Shown piece after piece: positions 50 through 28,863 of a stretch of 34,578 nucleotides of DNA. The notes under the pieces were generated by a model that saw nothing but the letters and a program-made list of their open reading frames with translations, did no database searches and had not been told where the DNA came from. The DNA lies in the UHGV virus genome UHGV-0107442, one strand, 5' to 3'. The stretch is from a virus. Position 1 is the stretch's first letter; every line of letters begins with the position of its first letter. Both the position numbers and the translations under genes were made by a program.

Positions 50-586
50 ATGCGTCGCGCTAACGATCCGCAACGGCGAGAAAAAATTATCCAGGCCACG
101 CTGGAGGCGGTGAAACTTTACGGAATACATGCTGTTACGCACCGCAAAATTGCTACCCTTGCCGGGGTACCGTTGGGATCGATGACCTACTATTTTTCAG
201 GAATTGATGAGTTGTTGCTGGAGGCGTTCAGCAGTTTTACTGAGATTATGTCCCGGCAATATCAGGCATTTTTTAGCGATGTTAGTGATGCTCAAGGCGC
301 ATGCCAGGCTATCACCGATATGATCTACAGCTCACAGGTTGCAACGCCGGATAACATGGAGCTGATGTACCAGCTCTACGCGCTGGCTAGCCGAAAACCG
401 CTATTAAAAACGGTAATGCAAAACTGGATGCAGCGCAGTCAGCAAACGCTCGAACAATGGTTTGAACCCGGAACCGCCCGCGCGCTTGATGCGTTTATTG
501 AGGGGATGACGCTGCATTTTGTCACCGACCGTAAGCCGCTATCGCGCGAGGAGATTTTGAGGATGGTTGAGAGGGTTGCAGGGTAG
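50..586 (+). CDS. TetR-family transcriptional regulator, host gene flanking the prophage (possibly RcdA/YbjK-like; not verified)
   Basis: ORF 20..586 in the track begins with TTG; first ATG at 50 is preceded by GAGGA (39..43). 178 aa with an N-terminal HTH-like segment ([22 protein letters not shown]) typical of TetR regulators. GC content matches the host-like side. Confidence 0.8.
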
Positions 587-690
587 TAGATAAATTTTAG
601 ATAACAAAAAACCCATTTATGTAAACGGGTTAATGAAAACAATAAGTTAGAGTAAAAACAATAAGTTGGGTTGGTGGTCAGTGGTGGTTA
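587..690. other. Probable prophage-host junction (attL region) between the TetR gene and phage int
   Basis: Non-coding gap between convergent gene ends. Contains two 13-bp direct repeats AAAACAATAAGTT (636..648 and 655..667), which could be integrase arm-type sites. Exact core not determinable without the empty-site sequence. Confidence 0.4.
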
Positions 691-1743
691 TTACGGGGTA
701 ATGCCAACCGCTGCCGCCACTTTGTCGCCACTTGGCAGCGTTGCCAGAGGATTGAAACGGAGCGCCGTTTCCAGATGATCTGGTGCCAGATGTGCGTAAC
801 GCATAGTCATTTTTATATCGTGGTGTCCGAGAATTTTTTGTAAGGCGAGAATGTTTCCACCCGACATCATGAAGTGCGCCGCAAATGTATGGCGCAGAAC
901 GTGTGTGAGTTGACCGCGAGGGAGCACGATAGACGTTTTTTCCATCACGGATAAAAATTGAAAATAGCAGTCTGTAAAGAAATTGAACCCATCAAGCGCC
1001 ATGATCTCTTCGTAAAGCTCTTTACTGATAGGGATGCTTCTGTTTTTCTTCCCCTTCGTTCTGACAAAGGTAATTCGGTATTTGGTCACCTGTGAGCGGG
1101 TAAGATTTACGGCTTCACGCCAGCGTGCGCCTGTGCTTAAGCATATCTTAACTACCAGTGCCAGAATCGGGTCCTGACGTTTACAATCAGCCAGCAATTC
1201 AACAATCTGCTCATGGGTAAGCCATGCCATCTCTTTTTCTGCGATGGTGAATTTTCGCATGTTCTCCAGTGGGTTCGGATACGACCATTCGCCCAGGCGG
1301 GATAGTTCGCTAAAAACACTACTAAGATAGCTTTGCTCCAGGTTAATAGTGACCGGGCTTGCTCCTTTTTTCCATTTCTCGCTGAAGTAGATCTCACCCG
1401 TCAGGCGTTTATCTCGATAGTGGGCAAACATTTTAGATGTGAGATCGGTTGCAAGGGGATTGCCCAGAGCGTCAACCATCAACAGCAATTTGTCATAGAC
1501 ATGCTGCCCAGCGGTTAGAGCTTTACCATGTAGTTTGAACCATAGCTCAACTACGTCTTTCAGTGTTCGACGATCCACTGATTCACCCAGCCAGGGCTTT
1601 GCTTCGGTTTCTTCCATCGTGTGGCGCTCAAAAGCCAGAGCTTCGCCTTTGGTGGCGAATTGTTTACGCACACGACGCCCACTACGTCCGGCGGGGTAAC
1701 ATTCGCAAAGCCATTTCCCTGTGGTGAGTTTTCGTACTGCCAT
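691..1743 (-). CDS. int: Phage tyrosine integrase (P2/186 Int family)
   Basis: ORF 691..1899 (-) in the track; first ATG at 1743 is preceded by GGAGGG at 8-nt spacing on the minus strand. C-terminal catalytic region contains HVLRHTFA and MTMRYAHL (R-H-R-Y type). 350 aa versus about 337 aa for P2 Int. Confidence 0.9.
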   Translation of the reverse strand: MAVRKLTTGKWLCECYPAGRSGRRVRKQFATKGEALAFERHTMEETEAKPWLGESVDRRTLKDVVELWFKLHGKALTAGQHVYDKLLLMVDALGNPLATDLTSKMFAHYRDKRLTGEIYFSEKWKKGASPVTINLEQSYLSSVFSELSRLGEWSYPNPLENMRKFTIAEKEMAWLTHEQIVELLADCKRQDPILALVVKICLSTGARWREAVNLTRSQVTKYRITFVRTKGKKNRSIPISKELYEEIMALDGFNFFTDCYFQFLSVMEKTSIVLPRGQLTHVLRHTFAAHFMMSGGNILALQKILGHHDIKMTMRYAHLAPDHLETALRFNPLATLPSGDKVAAAVGITP

Positions 1744-1931
1744 AAAAAATGCCCTCCAGTAGAGAGCATTTTTACTGTATGTATAACCAGTGTCAATGTA
1801 TGAAATCCTACGACCATACATCTCACTGAAGCCATAATGAAGTTGGCTATTCTTTTTGCTATGTGAGCATGTAACTTTTGCGGTTAACCTGCGGCTCATT
1901 TTTATTTTAGACGCAGATATAAAAGCAAAAG

Positions 1932-2123
1932 TTATCGTGAGTTTTTAGTACAGATTTTTTTGGATTTACTAATAGTTCCATCATTGCAAACGAATTTGCC
2001 ATCTGAGGTACAGTGAGAAACACCTCCCTTTTTCCCTGAGCAGGGATAATTTCTAGCATAGGTAGTTAGTGGGTTTAATAACAAAGAACATGACAAAACC
2101 ACAAAAAATACCTTACCAAGCAT
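1932..2123 (-). CDS. Small secreted cysteine-rich protein (63 aa) between cI and int; candidate lysogen-expressed moron
   Basis: ATG at 2123 (-) with a strong GGGAGGAA SD 5 nt upstream. Hydrophobic N-terminus [23 protein letters not shown], then a mature part with 5 Cys and many Lys/Gly. AT-rich relative to the flanks; 15 bp downstream of the cI stop on the same strand. Confidence 0.5.
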
Positions 2124-2138
2124 AGTTTCCTCCCGGTA

Positions 2139-2708
2139 CTATTTAACATACTTGACTGTTAAACTTATAATTTTACCAATTATTTCAATGTCTTCTATCT
2201 TGCATTCGAAGGCTCTGTTTCCACCCTCGACGAAGATTCTTCCACCGGGTAAACGAGTAATGTCACGGATCGTTATTTCGCCATCAATACTTATTACCCA
2301 TTTACCATCACGTATATCATCAAATTCTTTATCACAAATAAATTCAGAATTGTTATCTGTGATGACAAAAGGTTTTTTTAACGTAGAGGGTAGAAATTCC
2401 TTATCAAAAATATAAAAACCGTCTTTCTGCAATGCTCCATCAGACAATAAATATTTTTCTACTTCTATAGTATTTGTATTTGCTGATGCTTGCTTTGAAC
2501 CATGCCCTGTTGTTAGCCAATTAAGCGAGGTGCCCGTTTCAAGGGCGCACTGGATTACCCAATCTGCTGGAAAAATATCACGCATATAGCGCGTTGCCAT
2601 GGTGCTCTTAGAAACACCTAAATGATCACAGAGAGCCTGACGGGTACCGAACCCATATGCTTCAACTAAACGTTCTATGGCTTTCTTACCGCCGCTATTG
2701 AAATCCAC
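2139..2708 (-). CDS. cI: Phage 186-type CI immunity repressor
   Basis: ORF 2139..2795 (-) in the track, but 2795 is GTG and the stretch 2709..2795 holds a sigma70-like promoter. GTG at 2708 (V30, SD GGAGGA upstream) gives 189 aa, close to 186 CI (192 aa). Similarity to 186 CI as remembered: EAYGF...HTH...CALETG...NWLTTG. Start uncertain between 2708 and 2795. Confidence 0.75.
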   Translation of the reverse strand: MDFNSGGKKAIERLVEAYGFGTRQALCDHLGVSKSTMATRYMRDIFPADWVIQCALETGTSLNWLTTGHGSKQASANTNTIEVEKYLLSDGALQKDGFYIFDKEFLPSTLKKPFVITDNNSEFICDKEFDDIRDGKWVISIDGEITIRDITRLPGGRIFVEGGNRAFECKIEDIEIIGKIISLTVKYVK

Positions 2709-2735
2709 AAGTCCTCCAAAGAAATCCAAAATTCG

Positions 2736-2764
2736 TTGACAGATTCCAAAAGCGATCTTAAAGT
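2736..2764 (+). promoter_or_regulatory. Candidate rightward lytic promoter (pR-like) in the cI-apl switch region
   Basis: TTGACA (2736..2741), 17-bp spacer, TAAAGT (2759..2764), reading toward apl (ATG 2854). The lysogenic promoter and CI operators should lie in 2709..2853 but were not resolved. Confidence 0.4.
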
Positions 2765-2853
2765 TGAACCAGAAGTGTTCTTTTGGAGCCTTCACTACTA
2801 ATCACGACAAACAACGGCTCGCCACAAGCCATATCTAGAAGGAATGTTGCCTT

Positions 2854-8982: not shown

Positions 8983-10164
8983 ATGAAACTGACTGAGCTA
9001 ACTATAAACGGTATCGGGGGGATAAAGTCCCTGTACGTAAAATTTAGGCCTGACATGAATATTATATGTGGGCCTAACGGAGTTGGAAAATCCACACTCT
9101 TGCTTGCTGCCTCCTTTCCTTTTCTTCATGGATACACTAATAGAATAAAACGCAATGTCACTTCTGAAACAGGAAGTGTTAGTCTAATAATAGAAGATAA
9201 TTCTGTTAACTTTAATTCAGTATTAGATGTTAACGTTCATTTGCCTACAGAAACAATTCACAACTTTAATAATAACGGATTTGATAAGAGGAAACTAATA
9301 AAATTTGAAATATTACGTAACTTTGATTATAAACATCTTGAGGCGTTGAATGCAGATAAATCACTATCCGATGATGCTGTTTCGCAACAGATTAATTTAG
9401 GTGTCAATTTACATGATATCAAGGATTGGTTTGCTAAGAGGGATTTGTTTGAAAAAGTAGATAATGGTTACGGTCCTAATACGATAAAAAATATACATCT
9501 TGCAAGGGAGTGTATATCAATTTTAAACCCTCAGTTTTCTTACAATCGCGTCGATCCTAAATCTTACGATATTTTTGTAAATACCCCGACCGGGGTAATA
9601 TGGTATGAATATCTGTCCTCGGGATTCAAATCATGTATGAGTCTCCTTCTCGGTATTATTAAAGAGATCGAGCTTCGTTATCCGGAGAAAGATATTTACG
9701 CCCAAGAATTTGATGGAGTGATTCTTATCGATGAAATTGAGCTTCATTTGCATCCTGAGTGGCAGGCAAGAATCACTGAAGCCCTTACGACAACATTTCC
9801 ATCAGCACAATTTATTGTCACAACTCACAGCCCACATGTAGTACAGAATGCAAAACCACATCAGATCATTGCGTTAGTACCAGATAATGATGGCACAGTG
9901 AGAGTAAAAGAACTTCCTGAAAATGGCTTGGGTTATTCTGCCTGGACAGTTGAAGAGGTTTTGTTAGATGTAATGGGGATGGAAAGCACTCTCAGTAGAA
10001 AACTACAAGAACTACTTGATAATTTCGAACGTTTTGTTGATGAAGAAAATTTCGACAAGGCGAAAGAAATTTATGATTATTTGGATATGGCATTGCATCA
10101 AAACAGTATTCTTCGTAAATCTCTTAAAATAAGCCTGATGTCAATTCGAGAGAGAGAAGAGTAA
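8983..10164 (+). CDS. ABC/SMC-like P-loop ATPase, Septu PtuA-like
   Basis: ORF 8962..10164 begins with GTG; ATG at 8983 follows AGGAA. Walker A GPNGVGKST, Walker B VILIDEIELHLHP, then TTHSP. 393 aa; the stop abuts the start of the HNH gene. About 33% GC versus about 52% in the phage backbone. Confidence 0.8.
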   Translation: MKLTELTINGIGGIKSLYVKFRPDMNIICGPNGVGKSTLLLAASFPFLHGYTNRIKRNVTSETGSVSLIIEDNSVNFNSVLDVNVHLPTETIHNFNNNGFDKRKLIKFEILRNFDYKHLEALNADKSLSDDAVSQQINLGVNLHDIKDWFAKRDLFEKVDNGYGPNTIKNIHLARECISILNPQFSYNRVDPKSYDIFVNTPTGVIWYEYLSSGFKSCMSLLLGIIKEIELRYPEKDIYAQEFDGVILIDEIELHLHPEWQARITEALTTTFPSAQFIVTTHSPHVVQNAKPHQIIALVPDNDGTVRVKELPENGLGYSAWTVEEVLLDVMGMESTLSRKLQELLDNFERFVDEENFDKAKEIYDYLDMALHQNSILRKSLKISLMSIREREE

Positions 10165-10165
10165 A

Positions 10166-10912
10166 ATGATTAAGCTTGAACGGAACTTTATTCCTGATTT
10201 TTTTACTCGTGTTGATCTTCTATCTTTAACTCAGGAGTTTAAAGATAATGGAACATCTGTTTGGCATCATCCGGAAGTAAAATCGGCATGTCTAAAATTA
10301 AGTAATGGCAAATGTGCATTTTGTGAGGTCAAGCTTGAAGAGGCTAGCACCTATAATGAAATTGAGCATTTTAAGGATAAAAAAAATTTCCCTGATGATG
10401 TTATTAGATGGGAAAATCTCCTTCCTTCATGCCGTCACTGTAATGGTTCAAAACAACGCCATAATGTTGTACTCAATCCTATAATAAATCCATGCAACGA
10501 TTTACCGTCAGAACACCTTTATATGATAGGGTATCGTATTAAAGGTAAAACTGATTTAGGTAAAACAACAGTGGATGTTTTAAACTTTAATCACAGGGAG
10601 CACAAGTTTATACCGCGTTGTAAAGCAGGGGAACTTATAGATAGCAGTATTGATGACGCAATAGAAAAACTTAATTGGTTTAATGAGAATCCAAGTACTA
10701 GACGTAAAAACATTCTTATGAATCTAGTCGAGGCAATATTAGGTGAGTGTCAGAAAACATCTCCCTTTTCTGCAGTATCAGCAACAATGCTTCATCGTTC
10801 AGTCGAATATTCTTATCTGAAAGAAACCATGCAGATGCAAGGATTATGGTCAGATTATATGCAGGAACTTCATGATGAATCTTTGAGCCTGACGTTACCG
10901 TCAATTCGCTAG
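10166..10912 (+). CDS. HNH endonuclease, Septu PtuB-like
   Basis: 248 aa with CAFCE...EIEHFKDKKNFPDDVIRWENLLPSCRHCNGSK (CxxC...H...N...CxxC HNH core). ATG 10166 is 1 nt after the ATPase stop. Confidence 0.8.
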   Translation: MIKLERNFIPDFFTRVDLLSLTQEFKDNGTSVWHHPEVKSACLKLSNGKCAFCEVKLEEASTYNEIEHFKDKKNFPDDVIRWENLLPSCRHCNGSKQRHNVVLNPIINPCNDLPSEHLYMIGYRIKGKTDLGKTTVDVLNFNHREHKFIPRCKAGELIDSSIDDAIEKLNWFNENPSTRRKNILMNLVEAILGECQKTSPFSAVSATMLHRSVEYSYLKETMQMQGLWSDYMQELHDESLSLTLPSIR

Positions 10913-11378: not shown

Positions 11379-13145
11379 GTGGCTTTTGTAACTGATATTC
11401 GGCTTGAAGATAATGCTATTGCTGCACCTGCGACAGCACAGGTTATGGCTCAGAGGCTAGGATCTGTATTACGTAAGAGATATGAAGAATTCATCCATAA
11501 AAGAGAGTGTGCACCAGGCCAAGCAGACTATGATGTAAAAATGGCTAGCAGGGCTTTAGCTGCATTCACTATGTATCAGTTAGGATGTGTGGATGATAAG
11601 TATGCAGGGGAGTCTGTATGTGATAGTAGTGAAGATGGTGGTATAGATGGAATAGCAATCAACCATAACGAAAAAATCGTTGTTGTTGTTCAATCAAAAT
11701 TTCACCAATCGGGAAACGGCACTTGGACAAGAGCCGATTTTATGTGTTTTAAGGATGCTTGTGAGAAGCTACAAAGTGAAAGATACGAATTATTTGATTC
11801 CATATTGCAAAATAAAAGCGGGGAAATAAGTGCGGCTTTAAGTAGTTTTGAATACAAGTTCATCTTTGCGATGGCGCATACAGGTAAAAAAGGTGCTGCA
11901 GAGGAAATATTAAATGATATGCGGGAATGGCAATATCAATTAAACGCTGCAGCTTTTACACCTGAGGATGAGCCTAAAGAGAACTGGGGATTTCAGGTTC
12001 ATTTAATATCCTCTGAAGATATGATGCATTGGTTACAGAATGGCTCTCGAAATCAAATTGATCTTAACAGGGTTGAAATTGAGCGTTTTGGATTTTTGAA
12101 TGAACCATATCAAGCTTTTTACGGGGCTATTAGTGGTGATCAAGTTGCAGAATGGTGGGAAGAGCATGGTGCTCGATTATTTACAAAAAACATAAGGAAT
12201 ATGCTTGGTAAAACAGAAGTGAATGAGGAAATAAAAAAGACAGCTATAGATAATCCTGATATGTTTTGGTTTTATAATAATGGGATTACTGTACTGGTTA
12301 AGGAGGTTGTTCCTCATAGACGAAACGCAGCTCCTAATATAGAGAGAGGGATTTTTGATTTTCGTGATGTAAGTGTCATTAATGGTGCACAAACAGTCAG
12401 TAGTATTGGCGCATGTAAAGATGCGCTTGGTGAAAACATATATAGACTCAAAGTGCCAGCCAGATTCATTGTTATAGATGATGATACTGATAATTTAACT
12501 GCAAATGCGATTACAAAAGCTAACAATTTCCAAAATAGAGTATTGGGAAGAGATTTTGCGTCGCAGCAGGCAGATCAACATAGATTGGCAAGGGAGTTAG
12601 TGCTTGAAGGATATCAATATCAGTTACTAAGAACAGATGAAGATCATTCACAGACAAATACGAAAGTCATTGACTTGGATGAGGCGCTCAATGCACTCGC
12701 ATGTTTAAGTAAAAATAATACGGTTGTATCGACACTAAAATCAAATCGCGGTAGGTTTTTTGAAAATTTTGAAGGCTCTCTATATAAAACTATTTTCAAT
12801 CCAAGATTAAGTGGTTTAAAACTTATCAATACTGTTCTACATTTTAGAGTTATAGATAAGTTGATCGGTAAAACATTACTATCAGTAGATAAAACTACCC
12901 ATAGTCGCAAGCATTTAATTATTACGCATGGTAATAGATACTATGCGTCTGTGCTATTGAGCAACGTTTCTGGGATACATAATAGCTCAGAAATTCTTGT
13001 TCCAGATGAAAAAAATCTTTCAGAAGAATTAAGTGCATTAATTCAACGTGCTGAAGAGTACATTGAAGATAATTACCCGAATGCCTATCCGGCAAGATTT
13101 TTTGCAAATCCAACGAAAATACAAGAGTTATACGATAATGTTTAA
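11379..13145 (+). CDS. AIPR-family (abortive-infection phage-resistance) protein with an N-terminal PD-(D/E)xK-like nuclease motif
   Basis: ORF 11322..13145 begins with TTG. Start uncertain: GTG 11379 (GGAGGG 3 nt upstream) or ATG 11445. N-terminal DSSEDGGIDGIAI...VVVVQSKF resembles Mrr/restriction-endonuclease-like D...QxK. Central WFYNNGITVLV...VINGAQT matches the AIPR hallmark as remembered. AT-rich. Confidence 0.7.
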   Translation: MAFVTDIRLEDNAIAAPATAQVMAQRLGSVLRKRYEEFIHKRECAPGQADYDVKMASRALAAFTMYQLGCVDDKYAGESVCDSSEDGGIDGIAINHNEKIVVVVQSKFHQSGNGTWTRADFMCFKDACEKLQSERYELFDSILQNKSGEISAALSSFEYKFIFAMAHTGKKGAAEEILNDMREWQYQLNAAAFTPEDEPKENWGFQVHLISSEDMMHWLQNGSRNQIDLNRVEIERFGFLNEPYQAFYGAISGDQVAEWWEEHGARLFTKNIRNMLGKTEVNEEIKKTAIDNPDMFWFYNNGITVLVKEVVPHRRNAAPNIERGIFDFRDVSVINGAQTVSSIGACKDALGENIYRLKVPARFIVIDDDTDNLTANAITKANNFQNRVLGRDFASQQADQHRLARELVLEGYQYQLLRTDEDHSQTNTKVIDLDEALNALACLSKNNTVVSTLKSNRGRFFENFEGSLYKTIFNPRLSGLKLINTVLHFRVIDKLIGKTLLSVDKTTHSRKHLIITHGNRYYASVLLSNVSGIHNSSEILVPDEKNLSEELSALIQRAEEYIEDNYPNAYPARFFANPTKIQELYDNV

Positions 13146-26981: not shown

Positions 26982-27548
26982 ATGCTTATTGGCTATGTAC
27001 GCGTGTCAACAAATGACCAGAACACCGATTTGCAACGTAATGCACTGAATTGCGCGGGATGTGAGCAGATTTTTGAGGACAAAATCAGTGGCACTAAGTC
27101 CGACAGACCGGGGCTGAAAAAACTACTCAGGACACTATCGGCAGGAGACACGCTGGTTGTCTGGAAGCTGGACAGGTTGGGGCGCAGTATGCGGCATCTT
27201 GTTACGCTGATAGAAGAGTTGCGCCAGCGTGGTGTGAATTTCGGAAGCCTGACTGACAGTATTGATACCAGTACCCCAATGGGCCGTTTCTTTTTTCATG
27301 TCATGGGTGCCCTGGCTGAAATGGAACGCGAACTGATAGTTGAACGTACCAGGGCAGGGCTGGCTGCAGCTCGTGCCAAAGGCAGAGTAGGTGGACGCCG
27401 TCCTAAGTTGACCACCGAACAGTGGGCACAGATTGGGCGTTTACTCGAGGCCGGAGAATCAAGACAGCGTATTGCACTGATTTTTGATGTAGGCGTTTCT
27501 ACCATTTATAGAAAATTTCCGGCAAATAAGATCAATGAATCCCCCTGA
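26982..27548 (+). CDS. Serine recombinase, DNA invertase (Hin/Gin/Cin/Pin family)
   Basis: MLIGYVRVSTNDQNTDLQ... with the catalytic-serine motif (VRVSTNDQ) and a C-terminal HTH. ATG 26982 follows AGGGGG; an alternative ATG at 26976 is in frame. Confidence 0.85.
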   Translation: MLIGYVRVSTNDQNTDLQRNALNCAGCEQIFEDKISGTKSDRPGLKKLLRTLSAGDTLVVWKLDRLGRSMRHLVTLIEELRQRGVNFGSLTDSIDTSTPMGRFFFHVMGALAEMERELIVERTRAGLAAARAKGRVGGRRPKLTTEQWAQIGRLLEAGESRQRIALIFDVGVSTIYRKFPANKINESP

Positions 27549-27596
27549 ATCAGCATTATGTTGATTATCCCTGCAAGCAGACAAATACCGTTATTT

Positions 27597-27614
27597 TGTG
27601 TGAATAACGACACA
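27597..27614 (+). promoter_or_regulatory. TGT-N12-ACA late-promoter activator site upstream of the sheath gene
   Basis: TGT (27597..27599), GTGAATAACGAC, ACA (27612..27614), 77 bp upstream of the ATG at 27691. Confidence 0.5.
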
Positions 27615-27690
27615 ACTGCGCTTAGCTGTTTGTCAGGCACAATCACTTCAACATAGGGCGAAGCCTAATCCAATCAGGAGGTTCGCCACT

Positions 27691-28863
27691 ATGGCTCAGG
27701 ATTACCACCACGGGGTGCGCGTTGTTGAAGTCAACGAAGGCACCCGATCTATTACCACGGTGAGCACCGCCATCGTGGGTATGGTCTGCACGGGCGATGA
27801 TGCCGATGCAAAAATGTTTCCTCTTAATAAACCCGTGCTGATCACTGATGTGCTGACTGCCAGCGGTAAAGCGGGTGAGTCAGGTACTCTGGCCCGTTCG
27901 CTGGATGCCATCGCTGACCAGGCAAAACCCGTGACCATTGTTGTGCGTGTGCCGCAGGGTGAAACGGAAGACGAAACCACGACCAATATCATCGGCGCAG
28001 TGACTGCTGAAGGTAAAAAAACAGGTATGAAAGCCCTGTTATCTGCCCAGTCACAGCTCGGCGTTAAACCGCGCATTCTCGGCGTGCCAGGCCACGACAC
28101 CAAGGCGGTAGCTACTGAGTTGCTGAGCGTGGCGCAAAGCCTGCGTGGATTTGCTTACCTGTCAGCGTATGGCTGCAAGACAGTGCAGGAGGCGATCACT
28201 TACCGCGAAAACTTCAGCCAGCGCGAAGGGATGCTGATCTGGCCTGACTTTACTGGCTGGGACACGGTGCTGAATGCCGAAGCAACGGCATATGCCACCG
28301 CCCGTGCGCTTGGTCTGCGCGCCAAAATTGACGAGCAGACCGGATGGCACAAAAGCCTGTCCAACGTGGGCGTGAACGGTGTCACCGGAATTTCTGCAGA
28401 TGTGTTCTGGGATCTGCAGGACCCGGCAACCGATGCAGGTCTGCTGAACCAGAACGACGTCACCACGCTTGTGCGTAAAGACGGTTTCCGCTTCTGGGGT
28501 TCCCGCTGCCTGAGTGATGACCCGCTCTTTGCCTTCGAAAACTACACCCGCACGGCGCAGGTGCTGATGGACACGATGGCAGAAGCACACATGTGGGCGG
28601 TGGATAAACCGCTTAACCCGTCGCTGGCCCGCGACATTATCGAAGGTATCCGCGCCAAAATGCGCAGCCTGGTCAGTCAGGGCTATCTCATTGGTGGTGA
28701 TTGCTGGCTGGATGAGTCGGTGAACGACAAAGACACGCTGAAAGCCGGAAAACTCACCATCGACTACGACTACACGCCAGTGCCGCCACTTGAAAACCTG
28801 ATGCTGCGTCAGCGCATCACCGATCAGTACCTGGTGAATTTCGCCAGCCAGGTCAGCGCGTAA
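27691..28863 (+). CDS. FI: Contractile tail sheath protein (P2 gpFI family)
   Basis: 390 aa (P2 FI is 396 aa); ATG follows CAGGAGG. Confidence 0.9.

Follow-up and report, generated by a model that had tools for sequence, protein, structure and literature searches.

The window analysed here is a 34,578-nucleotide stretch of the virus genome UHGV-0107442, whose left part holds, one after another on the minus strand, a repressor gene (cI), a 63-codon open reading frame (ORF) and a tyrosine integrase gene (int). The ORF between cI and int is the subject of this report. Its profile matches almost certainly assign it to the YdcA family (NCBIfam NF007463; newer Pfam releases, PF27300; phrog_6000), of which it is a prophage-borne member, and it is called the ydcA-like gene below. 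The initial annotation, made from the letters of the window alone, had described this ORF with the correct coordinates, length, strand and strong Shine-Dalgarno (SD) sequence, and both the ORF list and Pfam agree with its placement between cI and int on the strand of these two genes. The AT-rich patch mentioned there is also real, with a GC content of 0.354 in the ORF, 0.367 in the spacer between int and the ORF and 0.326 in the C-terminal half of cI, versus 0.509 in the whole window. Positions of all features are collected in Table 1.

Comparative evidence establishes the ORF as a genuine protein-coding gene. The protein scored 115.8 bits against NF007463 (curated cutoff, 93; E = 5.3e-34), covering profile positions 1–58 of 58, and matched phrog_6000 at 1.9e-34. 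Of 5426 complete E. coli genomes, 696 contain its DNA, with near-identical copies in BL21-derived strains (NEBExpress Iq) and in E. coli HS; more than 500 IMG/VR viral contigs encode a relative, and the reading frame was intact in all of the approximately 160 viral loci and in 79 of the 80 genomic loci examined. Alignment with a copy from a BL21-derived strain (L169; 93.8% identical) revealed 12 differences in 192 nt, amounting to 11 synonymous codon changes and a single non-synonymous one, the conservative R24K, while the adjacent cI genes of the same loci differ by 41 synonymous and 28 non-synonymous changes. This pattern indicates that the frame is under strong purifying selection. It is the family hidden Markov model (HMM) matches, the prevalence and the synonymous bias of the codon changes that identify a real gene; length was considered as coding evidence and found insufficient, as 134 of 2000 shuffles (6.7%) of the 396 nt from 1744 to 2139 gave an ATG-initiated ORF of at least 63 aa. 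That figure and the AT-richness of the region are what could be said for a non-functional ORF, either a chance reading frame or what is left of a decaying gene in the AT-rich spacer. The HMM score, the 11:1 ratio of codon changes, the size of the family (449 representatives at 50% clustering, E ≤ 1e-3) and the preservation of start, SD sequence and frame across hundreds of genomes effectively refute such an origin already, leaving it a probability close to nil.

The precursor begins with a short n-region (MLGK), followed by a 12-residue hydrophobic h-region (residues 5–16, with a 9-residue Kyte-Doolittle mean of up to 2.7) and a c-region, NPLTTYA. Alignments of 36 and then 150 representatives showed that the N-terminal 20–25 residues are variable but always form a Sec-type leader with an AxA-like end. 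Among the 36 homologues, the leaders diverge in sequence, yet Ala-23 is at least 90% conserved and lies directly before the mature domain. Because the leaders diverge while Ala-23 and the mature motif stay fixed, the 63-aa precursor is very probably exported through Sec and cut by signal peptidase I after Ala-23 (TYA23). The part that follows the leader is rich in Lys, Ser, Gly and Cys, with a net charge of +7, an isoelectric point (pI) of 9.7 and four Cys residues, and the predicted product is thus a 40-residue, 4.3-kDa cationic peptide released to the periplasm. Hydropathy and composition therefore support the earlier description of a small exported Cys-rich protein with a hydrophobic N-terminus and a Cys/Lys/Gly-rich mature part.

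Within the mature domain, a core of about 35 residues is almost fixed across the family: N-x-P-C-S-G-x-K-G-G-[VI]-S-H-C-x(3-5)-[KR]-F-[VI]-C-N-D-G-[ST]-x-S-x-S-K-[KR]-x-C. The residues Pro-27, Cys-28, Ser-29, Lys-32, Gly-33, Gly-34, Cys-38, Phe-44, Cys-46, Gly-49, Ser-52, Ser-54, Lys-55, and Cys-58 were invariant in 36 sequences, and the same 14 positions were at least 90% conserved in the 150 representatives. An AlphaFold2 model built with the family alignment had predicted local distance difference test values of 85–92 over residues 31–60 and disclosed a β-hairpin with strands at 35–38 and 44–46. The four Cys residues would form up to two disulfides around this small hairpin, and the Dsb system is expected to oxidise them.

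The initial annotation had also pointed to a possible lipobox, which would make the product a lipoprotein lipidated at Cys-12 and anchored in the membrane. The string VLSC is indeed present at residues 9–12 and fits a permissive lipobox pattern. Cys-12, however, sits in the middle of the h-region, so that a cut there would leave an h-region of 7 residues and a mature start, CSLLLNPL, that is still hydrophobic. A lipobox would be expected to read [LVI][ASTVI][GAS]C, to close the h-region and to have a Cys conserved among orthologues; here the Cys lies inside the hydrophobic core and is not conserved. Most family members either lack it or have residues such as Ile or Val in front of it (homologues show LLIC, ILVC, FVCA or no Cys at this position), and the leaders of the HP2, Moraxella, Acinetobacter and K-12 versions contain no Cys. 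The classical lipobox consensus is not known to allow Ile or Val at −1. The residue that is near-invariant is Ala-23, before the mature motif, which again argues against lipidation at Cys-12, and a lipoprotein is accordingly a highly improbable product of this gene.

The gene is already annotated, is common, and belongs to a named, uncharacterised family. RefSeq lists WP_000900883.1 both as 'hypothetical protein' and as 'YdcA family protein', and UniRef names it 'Conjugal transfer protein'. A check against 72,556 plasmids gave no support for the latter name: a relative is present on only 58 of them (mostly of Acinetobacter and Rhizobium and of mixed mobility classes), and we regard the name as assigned automatically and unverified. 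Precomputed PF27300 hits exist for close homologues; our copy of Pfam-A is older than this entry and gave no real match for the ydcA-like protein. A resemblance to DUF3761 (pattern C-x-DG-T-x-S-x-S ... C-S-x-HGGV) was considered and dropped, as no Pfam hit to it appeared at E ≤ 1–10.

The family is widespread on the chromosomes of α-, β-, and γ-proteobacteria, and alignment places the window gene as a paralogue of chromosomal E. coli ydcA rather than an orphan. YdcA of E. coli K-12 (b1419; models of the family, NF007462–NF007464/PRK10040, PRK10040.1-2 and PF27300) is 57% identical to the window protein and has the same architecture of Sec leader and core, including the common motif PCSGxKGG[VI]SHC...GKFVCNDG[ST]xSxSKKxC. 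The two differ in sub-model, the window protein matching NF007463 and K-12 YdcA NF007462, and in location: the K-12 gene is chromosomal, between rydC and hokB, whereas the window copy is prophage cargo.

The start codon of the ydcA-like gene lies 15 nt past the cI stop codon (2139–2141), with GGGAGG within the gap. Of four diverged copies inspected, two have exactly this gap sequence and the other two differ from it by one base. Outside the cI coding sequence, our scan detected nothing resembling a terminator on the minus strand from 2139 to 691. A terminator-like hairpin at 1878–1894 was rejected, being a plus-strand feature that uses G-T pairs and whose arms do not pair on the minus-strand RNA. 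In the record of phage 186, cI abuts int, and a cI-int-orf69 lysogenic operon is transcribed from pL (maintenance) and pE (establishment), with a predicted terminator beyond int; the hairpin at the analogous place in the window, 3′ of int, is a candidate for the end of the lysogenic operon. The K139 record likewise presents cI-orf2-glo-int as a lysogenic operon. Given the close, SD-bearing gap after cI, the lack of a terminator before int and the layouts of 186, HP2 (see below) and K139, the ydcA-like gene is likely to belong to the lysogenic operon and to be co-transcribed with cI and int.

Comparison with sister prophages revealed that the space between cI and int is variable. Approximately 500 additional E. 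coli genomes share with the window the 5′ end of int and its rcdA site, and their similarity to the window stops about 60–80 nt upstream of int, at about 1803–1821 (megablast; query 402–422 of window:1400–2500). In these sister prophages the slot is taken by a 558-aa PD-Lambda-1 protein (1e-119), by a PDC-M11A/B pair with a third, DUF3644-like gene, or by a 314-aa protein of unknown nature. Isolated phages illustrate the same variation, vB_EcoM-813R9 holding a PD-Lambda-1-type gene and Klebsiella phage 4LV2017 a 350-aa unknown protein, while the slot is empty in 186 (cI-int) and in P2 (C-int); the remark in the initial annotation that P2 has no gene here was right. A defence hotspot between cI and int has been described in K139-like Vibrionaceae phages (Rousset et al. 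2022; PMC9122126), and E. coli 186-like prophages evidently have an equivalent one. Since its contents vary among homologous prophages at one insertion site, the slot is a cargo site, and we infer that a 186-like prophage beside rcdA carries the ydcA-like gene there as cargo. The slot resembles the P2-like cargo ('moron' or defence) hotspots of Rousset et al. in its variable content between conserved phage genes; unlike typical hotspot defence systems, the gene is far smaller and has no match to a defence model.

The order cI, ydcA-like gene, int was also found in prophages of three Yersinia species, in which cI and int are strongly diverged. The Yersinia integrases are closer to the HP2 integrase than to that of the window, so the repressor-ydcA-int order crosses P2-type lineages. 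In Haemophilus phages HP2/S2, a 60-aa YdcA-family ORF lies unannotated directly after cI on the minus strand (NC_003315.1, 2486..2668), its ATG overlapping the cI stop codon, and upstream of int. The HP2/S2 locus differs from the window in that an additional secreted gene, orf1(S), with a tRNA_anti-like OB-fold hit, separates the ydcA-like gene from int, and in its host, a naturally competent member of the Pasteurellaceae. Among 30 diverse viral loci, the repressor is directly upstream of the ydcA-like gene in seven (CI-type in five, S24/helix-turn-helix type in two).

The free-standing copy thus stands directly behind the repressor in several P2-type lineages, and the copies of Moraxella and Acinetobacter phages lie elsewhere in the genome. 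Outside the repressor position, phages carry the gene in typical moron positions, either flanked by tail genes or as the partner of a DUF4236 gene. Eight of the 30 loci, from Acinetobacter/Moraxella-type phages, have a DUF4236 gene immediately after the ydcA-like gene, in one of them (L112) on the opposite strand; the two genes are a conserved pair.

Clues to the mode of action come from proteins in which the YdcA domain is joined to other domains. Directly after the signal peptide, it is found N-terminal to three unrelated nuclease folds, Endonuclease_NS, SNase and PLD-type, the last a family that includes the periplasmic endonuclease Nuc. Among the top 120 hits of a search of 5.8 billion proteins, 17 combined PF27300 with PF01223, and in one viral locus (L107, 2084–2758) a gene for a secreted SNase lies 27 nt upstream of a ydcA-like gene. 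The repeated fusions suggest that the domain's ligand is DNA or that it shares an envelope address with the nucleases. The core is cationic across the family, with a mean net charge of +3.1 (range down to −1) and conserved Lys-32, Lys-55 and Lys/Arg-56.

When the family profile was compared with the sequences of the PDB, a single protein stood above noise: Dis2 (Lpg0823; 7muc_AN; E = 2.4e-4) of the Legionella pneumophila Dot/Icm type IVB system. The same chain was the top PDB match in Foldseek, where it was not significant; the hhalign probability was 79%, and a close relative of Dis2 carries a precomputed PF27300 hit. Each lobe of Dis2 traces the motif C-x-K-x-GG-[IV]-x-x-C...G-x-[LV]-V-C-N-[DN]-G-x-x-S, and the YdcA domain and Dis2 are probably homologous, with a shared fold. 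Dis2 is a small periplasmic protein, an outer-membrane-proximal Dot/Icm subunit pinned by five disulfides; unlike the window protein, it has two lobes and ten cysteines and is built into a secretion machine in stoichiometric amounts (PMC8486379).

A longer form of 132–136 aa adjoins T5orf172/MUG113-domain proteins and gp25/VasL/ImpA-type genes in several Enterobacterales. It consists of the YdcA domain and a basic, low-complexity tail and is followed by a 414-aa protein. By Pfam, its neighbours include T5orf172/MUG113 in nine downstream genes, gp25-like domains in six upstream genes and VasL/ImpA_N in three, the assignment to individual loci being inferred from lengths.

Taken as a whole, the locus is best explained by exported YdcA-family cargo of the lysogenic operon that acts in the envelope, a reading we favour with moderate confidence. 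A Sec-exported, disulfide-stabilised cationic mini-protein would be made continuously in lysogens from the lysogenic promoter, together with cI and int. With low confidence, the peptide would act in the envelope non-enzymatically, by binding a polyanionic or outer-membrane-proximal target; DNA crossing the periplasm and an outer-membrane complex are the candidates. Lysogens would thereby keep out, or be protected from, incoming phage or foreign DNA. The occupied slot, the nuclease fusions and the precedent of Glo suggest such a role in exclusion or defence, which we put forward tentatively, as a possibility; DNA as the ligand is more doubtful. The Vibrio cholerae phage K139 (Peduoviridae) likewise encodes a small protein, Glo, in its lysogenic operon between cI and int; Glo is exported by Sec to the periplasm, and its GenBank record annotates it as a phage-exclusion protein. 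It differs from the window protein in being 137 aa long, helical-looking and not Cys-rich, and the likeness is one of position and compartment only; homology was tried and rejected (BLASTP E = 0.16, with 23% identity over 30 residues). Because related prophages have variable cargo at this position, it is fair to label the ORF a candidate lysogenic-conversion or exclusion gene, in line with the initial annotation, and Glo offers a precedent.

Several observations weigh against this explanation or parts of it. The tail tube normally shields phage DNA on its way into the cell, and a free periplasmic DNA binder may never meet it. PADLOC returned 0 families at E ≤ 0.01 for the ydcA-like protein, and hence no known or candidate defence model. 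A consensus promoter scan of the window did not locate pL, and in the control region upstream of cI it found only a plus-strand promoter-like site (2736–2764). Upstream of int, a weak promoter-like site (TTGACA, 17 nt, AAAAAT) at 1796–1768 may give int its own promoter, which would leave the ydcA-like gene unaffected. The nuclease fusions are a minority of the family and could mean envelope anchoring rather than DNA binding, and the family context is heterogeneous, with members also beside genes of the type VI secretion system (T6SS) type and inside tail-gene clusters. Searched without its signal peptide, the domain matches Dis2 only weakly (E = 0.079). A literature search with the protein accessions yielded no published phenotype for the prophage copy, and the chromosomal paralogue is tied in the literature to acid and 3-hydroxypropionate tolerance, not to phage resistance (PMC7642389).

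This last point leads to the alternative that the prophage copy is a host-fitness factor, an extra dose of a periplasmic protectant against envelope or acid stress like chromosomal YdcA. Deletion of ydcA made E. coli W sensitive to 3-hydroxypropionate at 300 mM, in a study whose authors also refer to YdcI-dependent induction at pH 5 (PMC7642389). Together with the 57% identity to K-12 YdcA, the sharing of the whole mature motif and the wide distribution of the family on proteobacterial chromosomes, these data argue for such a role. The YdcA phenotype, however, comes from a single study and is without a mechanism, and prophage copies sit at places otherwise taken by anti-phage systems; the presence of the gene in at least three P2-type lineages, as well as in phages of Moraxella and Acinetobacter, suggests that it is the phage that benefits. 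We consider the host-fitness role unlikely, though not greatly so. Somewhat less probable is docking on an outer-membrane complex, in which the peptide would bind a structure near the outer membrane (a secretin, porin, receptor or secretion machine), as Dis2 does on the Dot/Icm cap, and mask or alter that structure, for example by blocking a receptor. The profile, Foldseek, hhalign and PF27300 links to Dis2 and the outer-membrane-proximal, disulfide-pinned position of Dis2 (PMC8486379) are consistent with this idea, as are some family members fused or adjacent to T6SS VasL/ImpA/gp25-like proteins.

A secreted, bacteriocin-like antimicrobial 40-mer acting on competitors can be discussed on the grounds that the charge, pI, four Cys residues and 4.3-kDa size of the mature peptide are superficially defensin-like. 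The neighbourhood holds no dedicated outer-membrane exporter, immunity gene or processing gene; the family domain is found in repeats and in fusions with enzymes that are periplasmic or secreted, and the charge across the family is modest, all of which makes an antimicrobial very unlikely. The most far-reaching form of the envelope-cargo explanation holds that PF27300/YdcA is a periplasmic mini-domain, so far unrecognised, with affinity for nucleic acid or for DNA-transport machines of the outer membrane, on which it would dock, and that lysogens use it to intercept or exclude incoming phage, transforming or conjugative DNA. This is a speculative proposal that is quite unlikely to hold.

Four observations appear to be new, no paper on them having been found: the repressor-ydcA-integrase order across three P2-type lineages, the unannotated HP2/S2 gene, the nuclease fusions and the probable link to Dis2. 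The slot is likely expressed in lysogens and otherwise carries validated anti-phage systems, and the recurrence of the order in E. coli, Yersinia and Haemophilus phages makes the family testable. Were the nucleic-acid or docking proposal true, it would define a new, enzyme-free class of exclusion factor and provide a functional assignment for chromosomal YdcA and for Legionella Dis2. Should exclusion be true, few protective factors known from prophages would be as small as this 40-residue peptide; otherwise the gene encodes one more small periplasmic protein. The probable fold shared with Dis2, a structurally resolved Dot/Icm subunit, could help to make the YdcA family tractable, and in combination with the nuclease fusions and the cargo-slot position it could bring this uncharacterised family within reach of simple experiments.

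Table 1. Features of the left end of the window (positions in the window) and related loci or proteins from the comparison sets.
Feature	Position or identifier	Strand	Evidence or remark
rcdA (ybjK), host gene	50–586		window begins inside rcdA, then prophage
Terminator-like hairpin, 9 pairs and T run	610..631	minus	3′ of int, facing rcdA; terminator/promoter scan
int, tyrosine integrase	691..1743	minus	Pfam Int_N 4.9e-32 and Phage_integrase 7.3e-22
Spacer between int and ydcA-like gene, 188 nt	1744..1931	minus	
ydcA-family gene, ATG start, 63 codons and TAA stop	1932..2123	minus	identical to RefSeq WP_000900883.1
Mature 40-aa domain (predicted)	1935..2054	minus	four invariant Cys: 28, 38, 46, 58
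Signal peptide, residues 1–23 (predicted)	2055..2123	minus	hydropathy and alignment of 36 homologues
Shine-Dalgarno sequence GGGAGG	2129..2134	minus	ends 5 nt before ATG; read directly from the sequence
cI repressor, 186/HP1 type	2139..2708	minus	Pfam Phage_CI_repr 3.3e-31 and Phage_CI_C 2.6e-29
cI/apl-like intergenic control region	2709..2853		pR and pL promoters expected convergent, as in 186
Yersinia loci with cI, ydcA-like gene and int	L182, L183, L205		Yersinia alsatica, Y. aldovae, Y. nurmii
Loci with ydcA-like and DUF4236 genes	L111, L112, L115, L127, L129, L150, L153, L159; L005 3417–3934		
Slot contents, sister E. coli prophages at rcdA	L006 2923–5127; L007 2928–4604; L008 2936–3880		
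Slot contents, further loci	L173 3576–5252; L174 3567–4616		
Nuclease-fused proteins	P0095, P0161, P0164, P0176, P0218–P0222 and others		
Chromosomal long-form loci, Enterobacterales	L208, L215, L217, L225, L229, L233, L249, L250, L253		

Beyond the control region, the plus strand carries an apl/cox-like gene, cII, fil and replication genes, and the control region is 186-like (CI/Apl/CII/Fil), not P2-like. RefSeq places the cI start at GTG 2708 (189 aa), which aligns with the N-terminus of HP2 cI, while the longest ORF starts at GTG 2795 (218 aa). Alleles of cI differ by about 15% in DNA although the linked ydcA-like genes are near-identical, and the immunity region is therefore mosaic. Megablast of 1745–2140 against 50,697 phage records gave no match, so that with respect to this collection the segment is known only as prophage. 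Rfam and tRNA scans of the whole window detected nothing, and thus no hidden RNA gene in the spacer between int and the ORF.

Elsewhere in the same prophage, between a DinI-like gene and the portal gene, the plus strand holds a Septu system (PtuA 1e-151, PtuB 2e-95; 8983–10912) and an AbiU/AIPR-like gene (6e-25; 11379–13145). A 'recombinase family protein' is encoded at about 27403–27969, beside oppositely oriented tail-fibre-assembly and tail-fibre genes, and this region resembles a Gin/Cin-type switch that changes host range by inversion.

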